From positions 3,999 through 67,998 of the IMG/VR virus record IMGVR_UViG_3300032132_000211: 64,000 nt of DNA; one strand, given 5' to 3'. Below the pieces are notes generated by a model. The model did not search any database. It was not told the origin of the DNA and worked only from the letters and a program-made list of their open reading frames with translations. This document shows positions 36,278 to 44,621 of the stretch, one piece after another. How positions within the stretch are numbered: the stretch's first letter is position 1; each line of letters opens with the position of its first letter. The position numbers and the translations under genes are program-made. This DNA comes from a virus.

Positions 36278-37237
36278 TTAGTTACAAGTTACTGCTAACA
36301 GTTCTACTAGTATTCTTAGATCATCGTAGTCTGTCGTGCCGTTAAAATCAAGATCGCAGCTAACATTATTTGGAATAGTTGTGCTTGGCAGTAGCGTCAC
36401 AGTTGACGTGGTGGTTGGGAACGAGGAGTAATTGTCTCCTGGTGTCCCGTCTACATTTGTAAGGTAAATCAAATCAATTCCTGGGGACTGCTGCAGGCCA
36501 TCAGCTTCTCGCTTGTAGATAGTTAGAGTGTGAGCGCCTTCCGAAACTAGGCCCAGATCAACAGGCTTGAGCCTAACGTCATCGTAGCCATCGCCATCCC
36601 AGAACCATTCATCGAATACTGGGTTGTTGCCGAGCCTAGTGTCAAACGAATCAAAAGTCATCCAAAATGAGTTGGCAGCGTTATCGTCGCCCCCTGATAC
36701 AGCCTTCATTCGTATCCACAGCTTCCAGTTTCCCGATGCTGGTATGTCCACGGTGTATTTCACGGAGTCTTGTCTCTGAGAGCCGTTCTTGTCGTCACCA
36801 GCTCCGTTCGGGTAAACAACCGTTCCTGACAAAGCTTCATCATCAAACCCTACTGAGAACGAGCCGCTTATTCCTGTGAAGTCTGCGCTGTCGATATAAA
36901 AGGAATGATCCTCTACTACAGCAAACGCTTCTGCTGGAAATGTCTTGGTGTTAGAGGCCAGTACTACGCCCTCTGGCATAAGGGCTAAGATGCCCACCGT
37001 TACTTCCTCGCTTATGATGGGGAATGTATCTGTTTCAAATACTATATCGCCTGCTGAGTTTATACCTAGACCTGGGTCAACCTCTGTGACGTACTCCCAA
37101 TCTTCCTGGCTGACAACCACTACATGAGAGTCTGCGCCAACACTAGGTTGGAAGCTAACCTTAAACCAGTTGTTGTCACTAGCATAGGCAGAGGTGGCCA
37201 GTAGCAGGCTTAGGGCAAACGCAGTCAGTTTCTTCAT
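36278..37237 (-). CDS. signal-peptide protein with CBM-like domain and dockerin/EF-hand-like C-terminus
   Basis: MKKLTAFALSLLLATSAYA (ATG 37237 after AAGGA); G.WKLWIR, NSFW, GAHTLTIYKRE, IDLIYLT; PTTTSTVT linker; DLDFNGTTDYDDL. Confidence 0.7.
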   Translation of the reverse strand: MKKLTAFALSLLLATSAYASDNNWFKVSFQPSVGADSHVVVVSQEDWEYVTEVDPGLGINSAGDIVFETDTFPIISEEVTVGILALMPEGVVLASNTKTFPAEAFAVVEDHSFYIDSADFTGISGSFSVGFDDEALSGTVVYPNGAGDDKNGSQRQDSVKYTVDIPASGNWKLWIRMKAVSGGDDNAANSFWMTFDSFDTRLGNNPVFDEWFWDGDGYDDVRLKPVDLGLVSEGAHTLTIYKREADGLQQSPGIDLIYLTNVDGTPGDNYSSFPTTTSTVTLLPSTTIPNNVSCDLDFNGTTDYDDLRILVELLAVTCN

Positions 37238-37238
37238 G

Positions 37239-38102
37239 TTAAAAAATCCTTTTGCTATAACGTGATAATACACTAGAAATAATTGGGTCTTCTAGTATTG
37301 ATTGTTTCTCAAAGACTATTTTATAGTCACCGATGCTTTCAGATAAGACGCCGTTTCTTAGACGACGCGAATACTCAGCAGTAGCCAACTTCTTAACAGC
37401 CATCCTGATATCTTCTGGGATGACTGGGAATCCTGCTGTGAACTCAATCACAGTAGGATAAGGGGCTTTAGGGAAAGTGCCGCCGTCTACCCGGCGAATC
37501 ACACCTTCGGTATCCAGAACCCAATTCCTGATTCCGCCAGTTGAGGCATCCAAGGTTGTACCGTCAATGACGATACTGGTTACGGTGTCTGCTGGGAACG
37601 CAGGTAATATAAGGAAGTTGGAAATTTGCTCGGGATAGAACGTAGTCGTGTATGTTTTATAGCTGAGCACACGGTCCAATGAGTTCTCGATAAAGGCGCT
37701 GCTTGAGCGCACCAGACCGAAAAGCAGGCCGTCCTTACTTGTGTCAGTTATGTTTAAATTAGCTTTAAGCTCATCAACTGTGTAGAGGATGTTAATGTCC
37801 TCTGAAACGATGAGAGTTACGTCCTCTTCGTGGACGTTGTTGGTGCTAGTAAGGCCAGTCTTTACTGTGATCTTGTAGACAGTATCTGCTGTGCCAGCAT
37901 TAATCCTGAATGTAAGTACACCTGATGCGTGGGCTAGTGTTCCCGACGCATAAATGGTGGAAGTCGCATCCGCCCCTCCAACTACTGCTATTACAGTAAC
38001 GGTTGCGTTGCCCAGAGTTATAGTCTCTCCAGAAGAGAGAACCGGGGAAAAGTCTATGGATACCGATTTAGTCTCGGCTATTTGCTTTAATATACTCTGC
38101 AC
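37239..38102 (-). CDS. head-tail connector (gp6-like) with N-terminal adaptor-like domain
   Basis: TVDELKANLNI..D.LL, FTAGF..IPEDIRMA, SESIGDY, LSRY; extra ~100 aa beta domain at N-terminus. Confidence 0.8.
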   Translation of the reverse strand: MQSILKQIAETKSVSIDFSPVLSSGETITLGNATVTVIAVVGGADATSTIYASGTLAHASGVLTFRINAGTADTVYKITVKTGLTSTNNVHEEDVTLIVSEDINILYTVDELKANLNITDTSKDGLLFGLVRSSSAFIENSLDRVLSYKTYTTTFYPEQISNFLILPAFPADTVTSIVIDGTTLDASTGGIRNWVLDTEGVIRRVDGGTFPKAPYPTVIEFTAGFPVIPEDIRMAVKKLATAEYSRRLRNGVLSESIGDYKIVFEKQSILEDPIISSVLSRYSKRIF

Positions 38103-42643: not shown

Positions 42644-42644
42644 C

Positions 42645-44621
42645 TTAATCTAAGTCACAGATAACATTCATATTGGGGTTGCAGTAGGTTCCGTCAGGAG
42701 GACAGTCCACCCCATCGCACTGAAGGAAGAAATTAATCTTACTGCCGCTTACCACAGTGGCAGTGCTTACTCCCGAATCACATGTGGTGCCAGAGCTAAT
42801 CGTACAAGAGAGAACTGTAGAAGCATCATCTCTAAAACCGGCTGTTAAGACTGTAGTGCCGTCCCAGGTGCATCCAGGCGTATCCACATACAAATCGTGA
42901 CAAACCATTCCAGCCTTTACTAGCTGCTGTGAGAAAGTTTCATTAGCTGAAGAACCACTCCAGATTGCATTCACCATCGGGTAAATGTCATTACCGTTTG
43001 TAAGGACGGTGTCACCACCCCAAATCCAGTTTGTAGTAGTAAAAACTTGGCGGCCTCGACCTGGGTAGTACTTGTGCTCGGCATCCGAGTAGATGTGGAG
43101 CGTACCGTCATCACTGTCTACTTCGATCTCACCCACCACCGATACGGATGGTGTTGAGTTGGACGGGATCTGAATCGTCGCGGCGCTCATGTCGAACCCG
43201 CCCGTTACGTCAACGTCGGTTCCGTTTGATTCTAGGCAACCGTCCGACCCTGCGCCCAAGCAGATGTGCTTCGCATCGTCCATGACGTTATCCGTGCTCT
43301 CTAGCATCACATCAGTAGAGGTGGTCTTCAGTACGTTTGCGTGTAGGCTGATCGTAGCCATCTTGCTTGCGGTGCATACGCCAGCAGGGGAACCAGCGCA
43401 GTCACCATCGACCGTGCAGAACGAACCCGCCTCGGAACCGCCTAGACAAGCCTTACCTGTGCCCACTACGCTGAAGTCCGCTCCCGTGAAGTCGATACCA
43501 GGTAGCGTTGCGACATAAGCGTTACCCACGTTGACGGGTGTGCCGTAGTCGTATGAGGTCAGCATGTTATAGGTCGTGTCTGTAGGATCTATGTCAGGGA
43601 AGCAGAACTGATGTTCGTCATCGTCCTTGCCAGAGCCTTCGCACAGGACGCAAGCACCCGTTGCAGTAGCAACGATCTGGCACTCGTCTGTCTCCATGCC
43701 TTCGTTGGAAGCCAGGGTGGGCGAGAAATCGTGCTCCAGCCATGTCAGGCTGTCAGCAGCAGGGACTGGTGTGTCCCAGGTGTTATCTCCAGCCCAGTAA
43801 GTCGTTGCCGTAGCGCTTGTGCCTGTAGCCATCATGCCAGCAGTGATCTCCAGTTCGTCTGTACCTCCATCTTCAAAGGCTGTCTTGGTGATGTCAATGG
43901 TATCGCCAGTCAGTGTGATAGGAGCACCCACCGCCAGGTTAGTATCATCGCTGATGTCCACTGTGCCGAGTGTTAGCTCTTGTGAGGAGATAGTCACGTA
44001 GTTCAAGCCACTTTCTATAGTAACATCCGTTGAGTTGTCAGTACCAATAGGGTCCACACCAATAGAGGTGCGTAGCGTAGCGCCAGACTCAACCGCAGGG
44101 TCTGTAGTGCCGTCGCCCACGATCATCTGGCCATCGCTGAGCAGGCCGCTGTTAGTAACTGCACCTGTGCCACTGCCGAACAACACGCCGCCATCTATGT
44201 GTGATGACGCTCCAGTGCCGCCATCAGCTACAGCAACGTCTGTACCGCTAACGTGGTAGGCAGTAGTGTCAGTCCCCGCTCCACCCTCGATGTAGTTGCC
44301 CGTGTGAATTGTGCCCACAGAGGTAGTCCAATCGAGGTGCTCGTTGACTAGGTCGATGTGGGAGTCGATGGTCGCGTGGCTATCAGCCCCTATGTTGGTC
44401 AACAGGGTGTGATCTAGAACATCAATGAAGTTTTCATCGACATCCTTTACTTTATTGCAGTTTGTATCGTGGTAAATCCTGTCAGCACTAGTATCTAGGC
44501 ACGTAACGCCGTCAATCTTAAGGAACCTGAAATTTGTTTTCCTGCTATTAACACTGTCTGCATAGGCGAAAGTTGCCGTGCATAGTAGCGCAGCAATAGC
44601 TTTAGCTAGTATTTTCTTCAT
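42645..44621 (-). CDS. fibre-like protein with signal peptide
   Basis: MKKILAKAIAALLCTATFAYA; DHTLLTNIG..SHATIDSHI and VAVADGGTGAS fibre-type motifs; one Cys-rich module. Confidence 0.65.
   Translation of the reverse strand: MKKILAKAIAALLCTATFAYADSVNSRKTNFRFLKIDGVTCLDTSADRIYHDTNCNKVKDVDENFIDVLDHTLLTNIGADSHATIDSHIDLVNEHLDWTTSVGTIHTGNYIEGGAGTDTTAYHVSGTDVAVADGGTGASSHIDGGVLFGSGTGAVTNSGLLSDGQMIVGDGTTDPAVESGATLRTSIGVDPIGTDNSTDVTIESGLNYVTISSQELTLGTVDISDDTNLAVGAPITLTGDTIDITKTAFEDGGTDELEITAGMMATGTSATATTYWAGDNTWDTPVPAADSLTWLEHDFSPTLASNEGMETDECQIVATATGACVLCEGSGKDDDEHQFCFPDIDPTDTTYNMLTSYDYGTPVNVGNAYVATLPGIDFTGADFSVVGTGKACLGGSEAGSFCTVDGDCAGSPAGVCTASKMATISLHANVLKTTSTDVMLESTDNVMDDAKHICLGAGSDGCLESNGTDVDVTGGFDMSAATIQIPSNSTPSVSVVGEIEVDSDDGTLHIYSDAEHKYYPGRGRQVFTTTNWIWGGDTVLTNGNDIYPMVNAIWSGSSANETFSQQLVKAGMVCHDLYVDTPGCTWDGTTVLTAGFRDDASTVLSCTISSGTTCDSGVSTATVVSGSKINFFLQCDGVDCPPDGTYCNPNMNVICDLD

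Follow-up and report, generated by a model that had tools for sequence, protein, structure and literature searches.

Why should a tailed phage carry, amid the genes for its head, genes whose products begin like proteins destined for export? Assembly of tailed-phage particles is generally assigned in full to the reducing cytoplasm, and the glycan-active proteins of phages are regarded as leaderless. The question is raised by a 64,000-nt stretch of DNA (positions 3,999 to 67,998 of the IMG/VR virus record IMGVR_UViG_3300032132_000211; "the window" below), which represents 64 kb of a 68-kb single-contig genome with a siphovirus-type layout. The phage is marine and tailed. Three of its genes, all on the minus strand, are considered here: P1 (42645-44621, 658 aa), P2 (39233-42643, 1136 aa), and P3 (36278-37237, 319 aa). 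An earlier interpretation made from the letters alone (the sequence-only reading) had placed all three between the capsid and the head-closure genes. This holds for P1 and P2, which lie in the interval from the major capsid gene to the head-tail adaptor gene, and not for P3, which is found directly downstream of the adaptor gene. We extend that reading by this position of P3, by the lectin-like and SGNH-type regions of P2, and by the finding that P1 and P2 form a conserved and mobile pair, none of which it contained.

Basic-hydrophobic-AxA leaders had been noticed at 44621, 42643, and 37237. The open reading frame (ORF) calls agree with these positions, and a rule-based test flags all three genes. 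To pass, an N-terminus needs an n-region with a net charge of +1 or more, an uncharged hydrophobic core whose best 8-residue window averages 2.0 or more on the Kyte-Doolittle scale, and an AxA-type site, with small residues at -3 and -1, at position 15-35. The n-regions read MKK.. (P1), MMAK.. (P2), and MKK.. (P3), each is followed by an uncharged hydrophobic h-region of about 10-15 residues, and AxA is found at positions 21, 21, and 19, respectively. The rules were satisfied by 8 of the 74 greedy ORFs of the window, including P1, P2, and P3, and by none of the 74 reversed-sequence controls; a stricter first version of the test did not flag P1. The predicted signal peptide of P1, MKKILAKAIAALLCTATFAYA (residues 1-21, 44559-44621, minus strand), would be cleaved between AYA and DSVNS, that of P2, MMAKVLTIAAALLLTATMAHA (residues 1-21, 42581-42643, minus strand), between AHA and ERISP, and that of P3, MKKLTAFALSLLLATSAYA (37181-37237, minus strand; small residues at position 19), between AYA and SDNNW. 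The start codons hold as originally given. P1 is preceded by a GGAG box and its start overlaps the upstream stop by 1 nt, while P2 and P3 start 1 nt past the preceding stop, which for P2 is that of P1. The longest ORF for P3 begins with a GTG at 37273; an AAGGA box is present only upstream of the ATG at 37237.

The leaders are not confined to this phage. P2 has 180 matches (E ≤ 1e-3) among 1.84 billion cluster representatives, and about 20 of these represent a rare P2-type family: 20 matches are long (at least 700 aa), rich in cysteine (Cys), and align along the protein. Leaders are found in 17 of these 20 Cys-rich members versus 3 of the 130 other P2 matches. Of the remaining three members, P0131 and P0166 are apparently 5'-truncated, and the N-terminus of P0124 resembles a leader on inspection. 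The n-region, h-region, and AxA features are kept in homologues which are only 22-31% identical to P2, and a GFE motif after the predicted cleavage site is kept throughout the aligned family. By this comparison the predicted leader is a trait of the P2 family, and the view that P1-P3 carry genuine and conserved leaders, predicted to be Sec signals, is supported.

A second contrast concerns cysteine. The mature proteins contain 20 (P1), 64 (P2), and 2 (P3) Cys residues, all even numbers. Pooling 20 other late proteins yields 48 Cys in 9206 aa (0.52%), and the products of the virion genes (window 22369-30153 and others) are nearly Cys-free, with one Cys in the capsid protein and none in the portal, the adaptor, the tail tube, and the 2594-aa tape measure protein. 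This contrast with the virion proteins is the strongest internal sign that P1-P3 fold in a different redox compartment. The module CxGGxxxGxxCxxDxDC, which the sequence-only reading had seen in two of the three genes, is indeed present in one copy in P1 (residues 392-408) and, with a relaxed pattern, in four copies in P2, which also has 10 knots of the type [ND]xDC. The Cys counts fit disulfide bonding, which is predicted for all three proteins.

The gene junctions also bear on the time of expression. Promoter-like and terminator-like sites are not in excess in the window (23 vs. 21.2 expected and 15 vs. 15.9 expected, respectively), and neither type of site is found in the flanks of P1, P2, and P3. 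The sequence supports a placement of all three genes within the late structural operon, with translational coupling to it. Because of this coupling, and because promoters and terminators show no excess, P1-P3 should be made late, alongside the structural proteins. A strong terminator-like hairpin (46611-46639, minus strand; 12 pairs, 8 of them GC, followed by a T run) is located directly 3' of the capsid gene, and read-through into the genes beyond it, including P1 and P2, would thus drop. Given the conserved leaders, the even and high Cys numbers, and the coupling to late genes, the proposal that disulfide-rich proteins are exported and folded oxidatively outside the cytoplasm, in the periplasm, proved to be a sensible one.

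What kind of proteins would be exported? For P2, a beta-sandwich with a concanavalin A (ConA)-like lectin/glycanase fold is indicated at about residues 120-430 (41354-42286, minus strand) by the structure model, the fold search, and homologue profiles. The AlphaFold2 model (mean predicted local distance difference test score, pLDDT, 61; predicted template modelling score, pTM, 0.65) has strands at residues 125-430 and an alpha/beta domain at about residues 660-1100. In Foldseek, the sandwich resembled ConA-like lyases of alginate and ulvan as well as the Emp46/47 lectins (E 3e-5 to 1e-3), with template modelling scores normalized by target of 0.44-0.52 on this model of mean pLDDT 61; no SGNH structure was among the Foldseek matches listed for P2. 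Laminin_G_3 is detected in 3 of the 20 homologues (best E 8.1e-12). The region at about residues 700-1100 (39344-40546, minus strand) resembles an SGNH esterase, with GDS at 720-722, N794, D1075, and H1078 in ORF numbering. Invariant in all 20 aligned family sequences are, in the numbering of P0001, D720 and S721 (block I with the nucleophile Ser; FGDST at ORF position 719), G748 and G778 (both candidates for block II), N793 (block III), and D1074 and H1077 (block V DxxH; DAVHW at ORF position 1075). Lipase_GDSL_2 matches 5 of the 20 homologues (best E 3.9e-06) and Pfam ALGX matches one (E 0.0065).

Between these two regions, the window P2 carries an inserted domain of about 85 aa (residues 540-628; 40760-41026, minus strand), which became evident from the homologue comparison. 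It is common to most of the 130 matches that are not Cys-rich, and the four full-length carriers among them that were tested all belong to phrog_3287, annotated as virion structural protein. The insertion is absent from the other 7 P2-family members aligned. The word-based homologue search matched P2 only to itself, and a sequence search of the PDB (E ≤ 1) returned no match for P1 or P2. Taken from homologues and model, P2 is predicted to be a ConA-like jelly roll joined to an SGNH esterase with about 10 small Cys knots; the predicted activity is probably that of a deacetylase. With a leader, a predicted ConA-like domain, and a predicted SGNH esterase bearing Cys knots, the P2-type proteins constitute a new family of phage proteins.

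P1 was expected to show a fibre-type motif, and it does: 632 proteins match at E ≤ 1e-3, mostly via residues 122-195, which are 60-78% identical to many fibre-type proteins, some of them with Peptidase_S74 (PF13884). The 120 P1 homologues listed mostly have fibre-like N-termini without a leader; the leader test flagged three of them, namely P1 itself, P0075, and one weak case. The shaft (residues 60-262; 43836-44444, minus strand) is modelled as an intertwined homotrimer, with an ipSAE interface score of 0.77 versus 0.00 for the best of three controls, a partner pLDDT of at least 76, and at least 90% of contacts shared between runs; in calibration, the mark for the trimer score was reached by 20 of 30 solved homomers and by 1 of 23 monomers. 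A loop, Cys41-Cys55, comes after the leader, and the N-terminus showed no recognisable attachment domain. The C-terminal Cys-rich domain (residues 263-658; 42648-43835, minus strand) holds 16 of the 20 mature Cys in its 396 residues. It is 96% identical to the homologue from the viral contig L002 and 37% to P0075, and the pairwise comparison with a 389-aa protein from contig L084 has an E-value of 8e-9. On the trimer model, P1 is a trimeric fibre ending in a Cys-rich domain. A fold is not assigned to this domain because the monomer model of P1 failed (pLDDT 31). A tblastn search of 50,697 phage records with P1 gave no match. An Atlas look-alike search placed the P1 C-terminus near viral fibre-tip clusters, with a score of 0.85 that is below the 0.9 bar and thus a lead only.

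P3 is predicted from its sequence to be a small beta-sandwich protein. Its weak Pfam match to GH115_C, a beta-sandwich, has an E-value of 0.0039 and is below the Pfam cut-off; a C-terminal loop is closed by the only two Cys of the protein, Cys294 and Cys318. The homologue search returned only P3 itself, and the single match from a PDB sequence search (E 0.94) is taken as chance. A dockerin at the C-terminus was considered and rejected, there being no Pfam match even at E ≤ 5 and only one DxDxNG-like loop. Atlas neighbours of P3 with a dockerin score 0.82, again below the 0.9 bar, and are a lead only. For P1, P2, and P3 alike, no match in Pfam, PHROGs, or NCBIfam passed the cut-offs, and the weak matches of the set were limited to Ig_SIBA-E_2nd (0.0074) and GH115_C. 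None of the three matched a PHROG for head decoration or head fibre proteins at E ≤ 0.01.

A search for the same arrangement in other phages, as proposed along with the sequence-only reading, was successful. Genomic context is available for 4 of the 20 P2-family representatives, and all four lie in phage structural regions (scans of viral contigs with P0122, P0124, P0075, P0128, and P0123 yielded no locus). Counting the window, the genes are found in head gene clusters in four of five contexts, the others being contigs L002, L084, and L083, in each of which a P1-type gene with a signal peptide directly precedes the P2-type gene. The viral contig L002 (34.5 kb) encodes a capsid protein of the HK97 type (Phage_capsid, 1e-52), and its pair is flanked by the capsid gene and a connector gene of the head-completion type. 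The P1 homologue of L002 differs in its N-terminal half, which likewise begins like a leader when translation is taken to start at a TTG preceded by an AAGGA box; the start given in the database lies further in and excludes the leader. L084 (with variants L085-L087) is an L002-like siphovirus with the order capsid, glycosyltransferase, small ORF, 389-aa P1-type protein with a hydrophobic N-terminus, the P2-type protein P0126, connector, glycosyltransferase, and tail tube. L083 is podovirus-like, with the order portal, 110-aa ORF, 436-aa leader-bearing Cys-rich protein, the P2-type protein P0133, possible scaffold, capsid, and tail tube proteins. The fifth context, L082, is a prophage region on a contig from a metagenome-assembled genome. 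Here, P0124 follows the central tail fibre J (phrog_31, 6.4e-129) and is encoded two genes upstream of the endolysin (phrog_315, 5.1e-29); no P1-type gene was recognised in this contig.

Sequence comparisons indicate that the P1-type proteins are related to each other (P1 to L084, E 8e-9; L084 to P0075, 1e-20; L083 to P0075, 6e-5). BLAST gave no direct match between P1 and the 436-aa protein from L083, which is linked to P1 only because P0075 and the L084 protein bridge the two. The small proteins encoded upstream of the P1-type genes could not be aligned convincingly, and a three-gene module is thus not claimed. In L083 and L084, the GC content of the pair matches that of the host phage. Glycosyltransferase genes accompany the pair in all three siphovirus loci, with family 2 (GT2) glycosyltransferase domains in the structural module of the window and two GT1 genes each in those of L002 and L084.

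The relation between the window and L002 reveals a recent transfer. A block of 4640 nt (39143-43782; no strand assigned) is 99.05% identical between the two and has a GC content of 0.560 versus 0.461 in the rest of the window. The rest of the two sequences yielded a single weak tblastx match (106 residues, 29% identity), and the capsid genes showed no similarity in this comparison. The two P2 proteins are identical in 1125 of 1136 residues; 27 codons differ, 16 of them synonymously and 11 not. At third codon positions the GC content is 0.645 for P2, 0.39-0.49 for its neighbours in the window, and 0.60-0.64 for L002 genes. One breakpoint lies within P1, such that the phage-specific N-terminal half is kept and the C-terminal half is exchanged. 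At the other end, L002 has a chimeric ORF (14604-14790, plus strand), in which the 28 first codons of the window gene for a repeat protein are fused in frame to a P2-type tail of about 30 codons resembling the end of another P2-type gene. This ORF is the scar of a cassette replacement. In the simplest reading, a window-like phage donated the block, which overwrote a resident P2-type gene in L002; both lineages thus already had the pair.

Contigs of public marine sequencing runs from separate studies break off from the window at the L002-type junctions, three runs showing the one at 39143 and two the one at 43748. In run X2, the L002-type junctions are accompanied by coverage of all 30 bins of the window stretch, so that both phages co-occur; for runs X3, X4, and X6, the contig-cover reading leaves out the uncovered parts of the stretch. 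The C-terminal half of P1 was swapped together with P2, which matches the movement of host-specific fibre tips. We propose that P1/P2 represents a host-glycan-specific module which is exchanged between phages like the tips of tail fibres.

The repeat protein of the window (363 aa; 38135-39226, minus strand), of which the first 28 codons are included in the mobile block, is composed of units of about 17 aa (type VFDSKVIVxDxDTE). L002 encodes a repeat protein of about 365 aa (15533-16636, plus strand) in the same position, between P2 and connector, with unrelated units of about 22 aa (type SVVNSETLGTASV). A family was not found for either. Membership of these proteins in the module was considered and set aside, since they share position and no sequence similarity.

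How might the three proteins be used? Our favoured reading, in which we place moderate confidence, is that P1-P3 pass into the periplasm, acquire their disulfides while folding there, escape at lysis, and then act on host glycans. It is close to one alternative offered by the sequence-only reading, that of late-expressed host-surface effectors. P1, P2, and P3 would be synthesized late together with the structural proteins, exported by the Sec pathway, and cut by signal peptidase I. Disulfide formation would be assisted by Dsb proteins in the oxidizing periplasm of a Gram-negative marine host; the holin (phrog_6918) and a neighbouring ORF with a lipobox fit such a host. The proteins would accumulate in the periplasm while virions assemble in the cytoplasm, and would be released upon lysis. 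They might then bind and deacetylate, perhaps also cleave, an acetylated surface or matrix polysaccharide of the host, and would thus be an accessory set that binds and destroys receptor glycans. The sequences themselves show the leaders and how widely they are kept, the domain composition, the catalytic residues, the pairing of the genes, and their recent transfer; that the proteins are exported, form disulfides, and act once released, and on what substrate, we infer.

Several observations weigh against this scenario. The leaders were assigned by a rule-based test of our own, and export and cleavage are predictions. The window P2 has no Pfam match to SGNH or LamG at E ≤ 0.01, so that its domain names derive from homologues and invariant residues; its structure model is only moderate (mean pLDDT 61), and the monomer model of P1 is poor. 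Since a Sec leader takes a protein no further than the periplasm, any action outside the cell would have to await lysis. Nor is it obvious why an enzyme that works in solution should need a trimeric fibre shaft, or why the genes should keep a constant, translationally coupled position among the head genes. Finally, the P1-type protein of L084 may carry an uncleaved signal anchor in place of a cleaved leader.

In a second reading, the proteins become part of the particle. After folding in the periplasm they might dock on completed virions as soon as the two compartments are mixed by holin lesions or by lysis, with the N-terminal half of P1 as the anchor and its C-terminal domain together with P2 as the swappable, host-specific part. 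We consider this possible, though rather unlikely. It agrees with the location of the genes in head clusters in four of five contexts, with the modelled trimeric P1 and the shaft it shares with 632 fibre-type phage proteins, with a breakpoint that retains the N-terminal half of P1 and swaps the C-terminal half as in tail fibres, with the domain of phrog_3287 virion structural proteins in the window P2, and with the Atlas lead that puts the P1 C-terminus close to fibre-tip clusters. On the other hand, an element for binding to capsid or neck was not seen in the proteins, we know of no precedent for the docking of exported appendages in tailed phages, one family member is encoded after tail fibre J and beside lysis genes, and the P1-type protein of L084 may stay anchored in the membrane. 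Moreover, P2 is nearly identical (1125/1136) in two phages whose capsid genes have no detectable similarity, which argues against a direct and specific contact between P2 and the capsid. An adaptor to the particle might nonetheless be provided by the N-terminal half of P1, which is phage-specific. In a variant that we regard as less likely still, the exported, disulfide-knotted P1, P2, and P3 would bind phage-made glycans on capsid or neck proteins, at the time when holin lesions join cytoplasm and periplasm. This would explain how a 99%-identical P2 can serve two phages with dissimilar capsid genes, and also the glycosyltransferases beside the pair in all three siphovirus loci. The variant is based on those glycosyltransferases in the structural modules of the window, L002, and L084 and on a glycan-synthesis cluster of 7.4 kb in the window (5840-13215, minus strand). 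The cluster codes for two GNAT acetyltransferases, a DegT/DnrJ aminotransferase (7.7e-75), a 2OG-Fe(II) oxygenase, an NAD-dependent epimerase/dehydratase (2.4e-42), and three glycosyltransferase-like proteins, which suggests, from the gene content, that the phage makes an acetylated amino-sugar glycan.

Three further explanations were weighed. P2 might act on a periplasmic substrate before lysis, easing endolysin action or release, for example by removing O-acetyl groups from peptidoglycan or undecaprenyl-linked glycans. Periplasmic enzymes which join an SGNH domain to a sugar-binding module exist (Ape1, AlgX), one of the 20 family members matches Pfam ALGX (E 0.0065), the SGNH residues are conserved, the Sec leader delivers to the periplasm, and in L082 the P2-type gene is two genes upstream of the endolysin. 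We nevertheless judge such a lysis or envelope helper to be improbable: the lysis genes of the window are about 23 kb off (at 13.8-16.3 kb), a lectin domain and ten Cys knots would be heavy equipment for the task, and the fibre P1, P3, and the fibre-type mosaic exchange are left unexplained. Even less probable in our view are classical morons, foreign insertions which shield an infected or lysogenic cell by masking or modifying the receptor (superinfection exclusion), as do Lom/Bor or Llp. The block is mobile, encodes predicted exported proteins, and is foreign in composition (GC 0.560 vs. 0.461; GC at third codon positions of P2 0.645 vs. 0.39-0.49 in neighbours). But promoters and terminators are not in excess, the starts are coupled to late genes, and late expression would come too late to protect the cell. 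In addition, the place of the pair is fixed in several lineages, its GC content equals that of the host phage in L083 and L084, and no integrase was found among the scanned window proteins (a subset of the ORFs). The faintest prospect is that the leaders are unused, the proteins being ordinary virion fibres assembled in the cytoplasm with hydrophobic N-termini of some other role. Tailed-phage structural proteins normally assemble in the cytoplasm, and the genes are located in a structural module. However, the leader features persist in homologues only 22-31% identical to P2, just three of the 120 listed fibre homologues of P1 are flagged (P1 and one weak case included), and the extreme, even-numbered Cys content contrasts with virion proteins that are nearly Cys-free.

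P1 and P2 can be compared with several known systems. Phages carry virion-borne SGNH esterases in tailspikes and fibres, e.g., O-antigen or capsule deacetylases. As in these, a predicted SGNH esterase with fibre and sugar-binding modules is encoded among structural genes and exchanged as a module; such tailspikes, however, are not known to have leaders or to be Cys-rich and are assembled into tails in the cytoplasm, whereas P1/P2 have leaders, 20 and 64 Cys, and a place in head clusters. Exported proteins are known from phage late regions (lambda Lom and Bor, T5 Llp), and P1/P2 share with them Sec-type leaders, a position among or beside structural genes, and a foreign base composition. These are small outer-membrane proteins or lipoproteins with their own expression signals that protect the cell, whereas P1/P2 are large, coupled to late genes, and comprise a carbohydrate-active protein and a fibre. 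Soluble (free) phage polysaccharide depolymerases are glycan enzymes which act off the particle after lysis, as is proposed for P1/P2; to our knowledge, they are leaderless cytoplasmic proteins that are released by lysis, and a Sec-routed, disulfide-knotted form paired with an exported fibre was not found in the literature listings searched. With Ape1 and AlgX, P2 would have in common a Sec leader, an SGNH fold, a beta-sandwich sugar-binding domain, and a connection to acetylated glycans, but the P2 family is phage-borne and has Cys knots, and the relation in sequence is negligible (ALGX in 1 of 20, E 0.0065). For virion glycosylation in mycobacteriophages, glycosyltransferase genes are likewise reported inside structural modules, and the listings and abstracts of that work describe no exported lectin partner.

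Sec leaders, SGNH esterases, ConA-like domains, fibre shafts, and mosaic exchange are each of a known kind. In literature listings and the beginnings of abstracts, leader-bearing fibre or esterase genes in phage head modules are not described, and we have not found described the combination of a leader-bearing, disulfide-knotted fibre and lectin-esterase pair in head clusters of unrelated phages. The pair brings conserved, exchangeable, Sec-routed, and heavily disulfide-bonded carbohydrate-active proteins, as predicted here, into the midst of head clusters of several unrelated marine phages. Late phage biology would gain a further compartment with it, the periplasm, in which proteins destined for seawater are folded, and docking on virions, if true, would be a new mode of virion assembly. 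In addition, the pair shows clearly, in a natural setting, a cassette of the host-range type that has moved between phages found together.

The surroundings of the three genes (all on the minus strand) are as follows. The portal gene (50201-51646; phrog_12, 3.4e-75) and the prohead protease gene (49127-50137) are followed by a methyltransferase gene (48266-49036; Methyltransf_23, 2.6e-07), located between the protease and the major capsid gene (46669-48162; phrog_10, 1.9e-19), the upstream boundary of the capsid-adaptor interval. Four small ORFs separate the capsid gene from P1. P2, with its signal peptide, predicted jelly roll, inserted virion-protein domain, esterase region, and Cys knots, and the repeat protein gene precede the head-tail adaptor gene (37239-38102; phrog_442, 1.2e-27; Pfam Phage_connect_1, 5.6e-09). 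P3 is followed by a 198-aa ORF and then, as the second gene downstream, by the gene for an 801-aa glycosyltransferase with a double GT2 domain and tetratricopeptide repeats (33232-35637; Glycos_transf_2, 7.4e-41), after which come the tail tube-like, chaperone, and tape-measure genes. The capsid protein is distantly T5-like, with at most 29% identity among the phage records listed. A search with it yielded a single distant relative, L001 (28% identity), in which the genes between capsid and connector have no leaders.

Some further observations were made elsewhere in the window. At the contig end (about 63900-64000), the last 100 bases are tandem short G+C-rich units of the type ACGGGCCGAC; a terminal direct repeat of 20-2000 nt joining the contig ends was not detected. 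A 112-aa ORF in the early region (61425-61763, plus strand), for which no family was found at E ≤ 5, has a clear leader, MKIIIATLLVLAFA... The lysis region comprises a transglycosylase-like protein (13802-14491) and, at 15269-16258 (minus strand), the holin, another small membrane ORF, and an ORF of 93 aa that carries a lipobox-like LSIGC and is a possible outer-membrane spanin. Adjoining the lysis genes, a 195-aa protein (13222-13809, minus strand) is possibly an exported nuclease: its N-terminus is hydrophobic and resembles a leader, and it contains a domain of the staphylococcal nuclease type (Pfam SNase, 3.7e-05; phrog_452 endonuclease, 2e-18).

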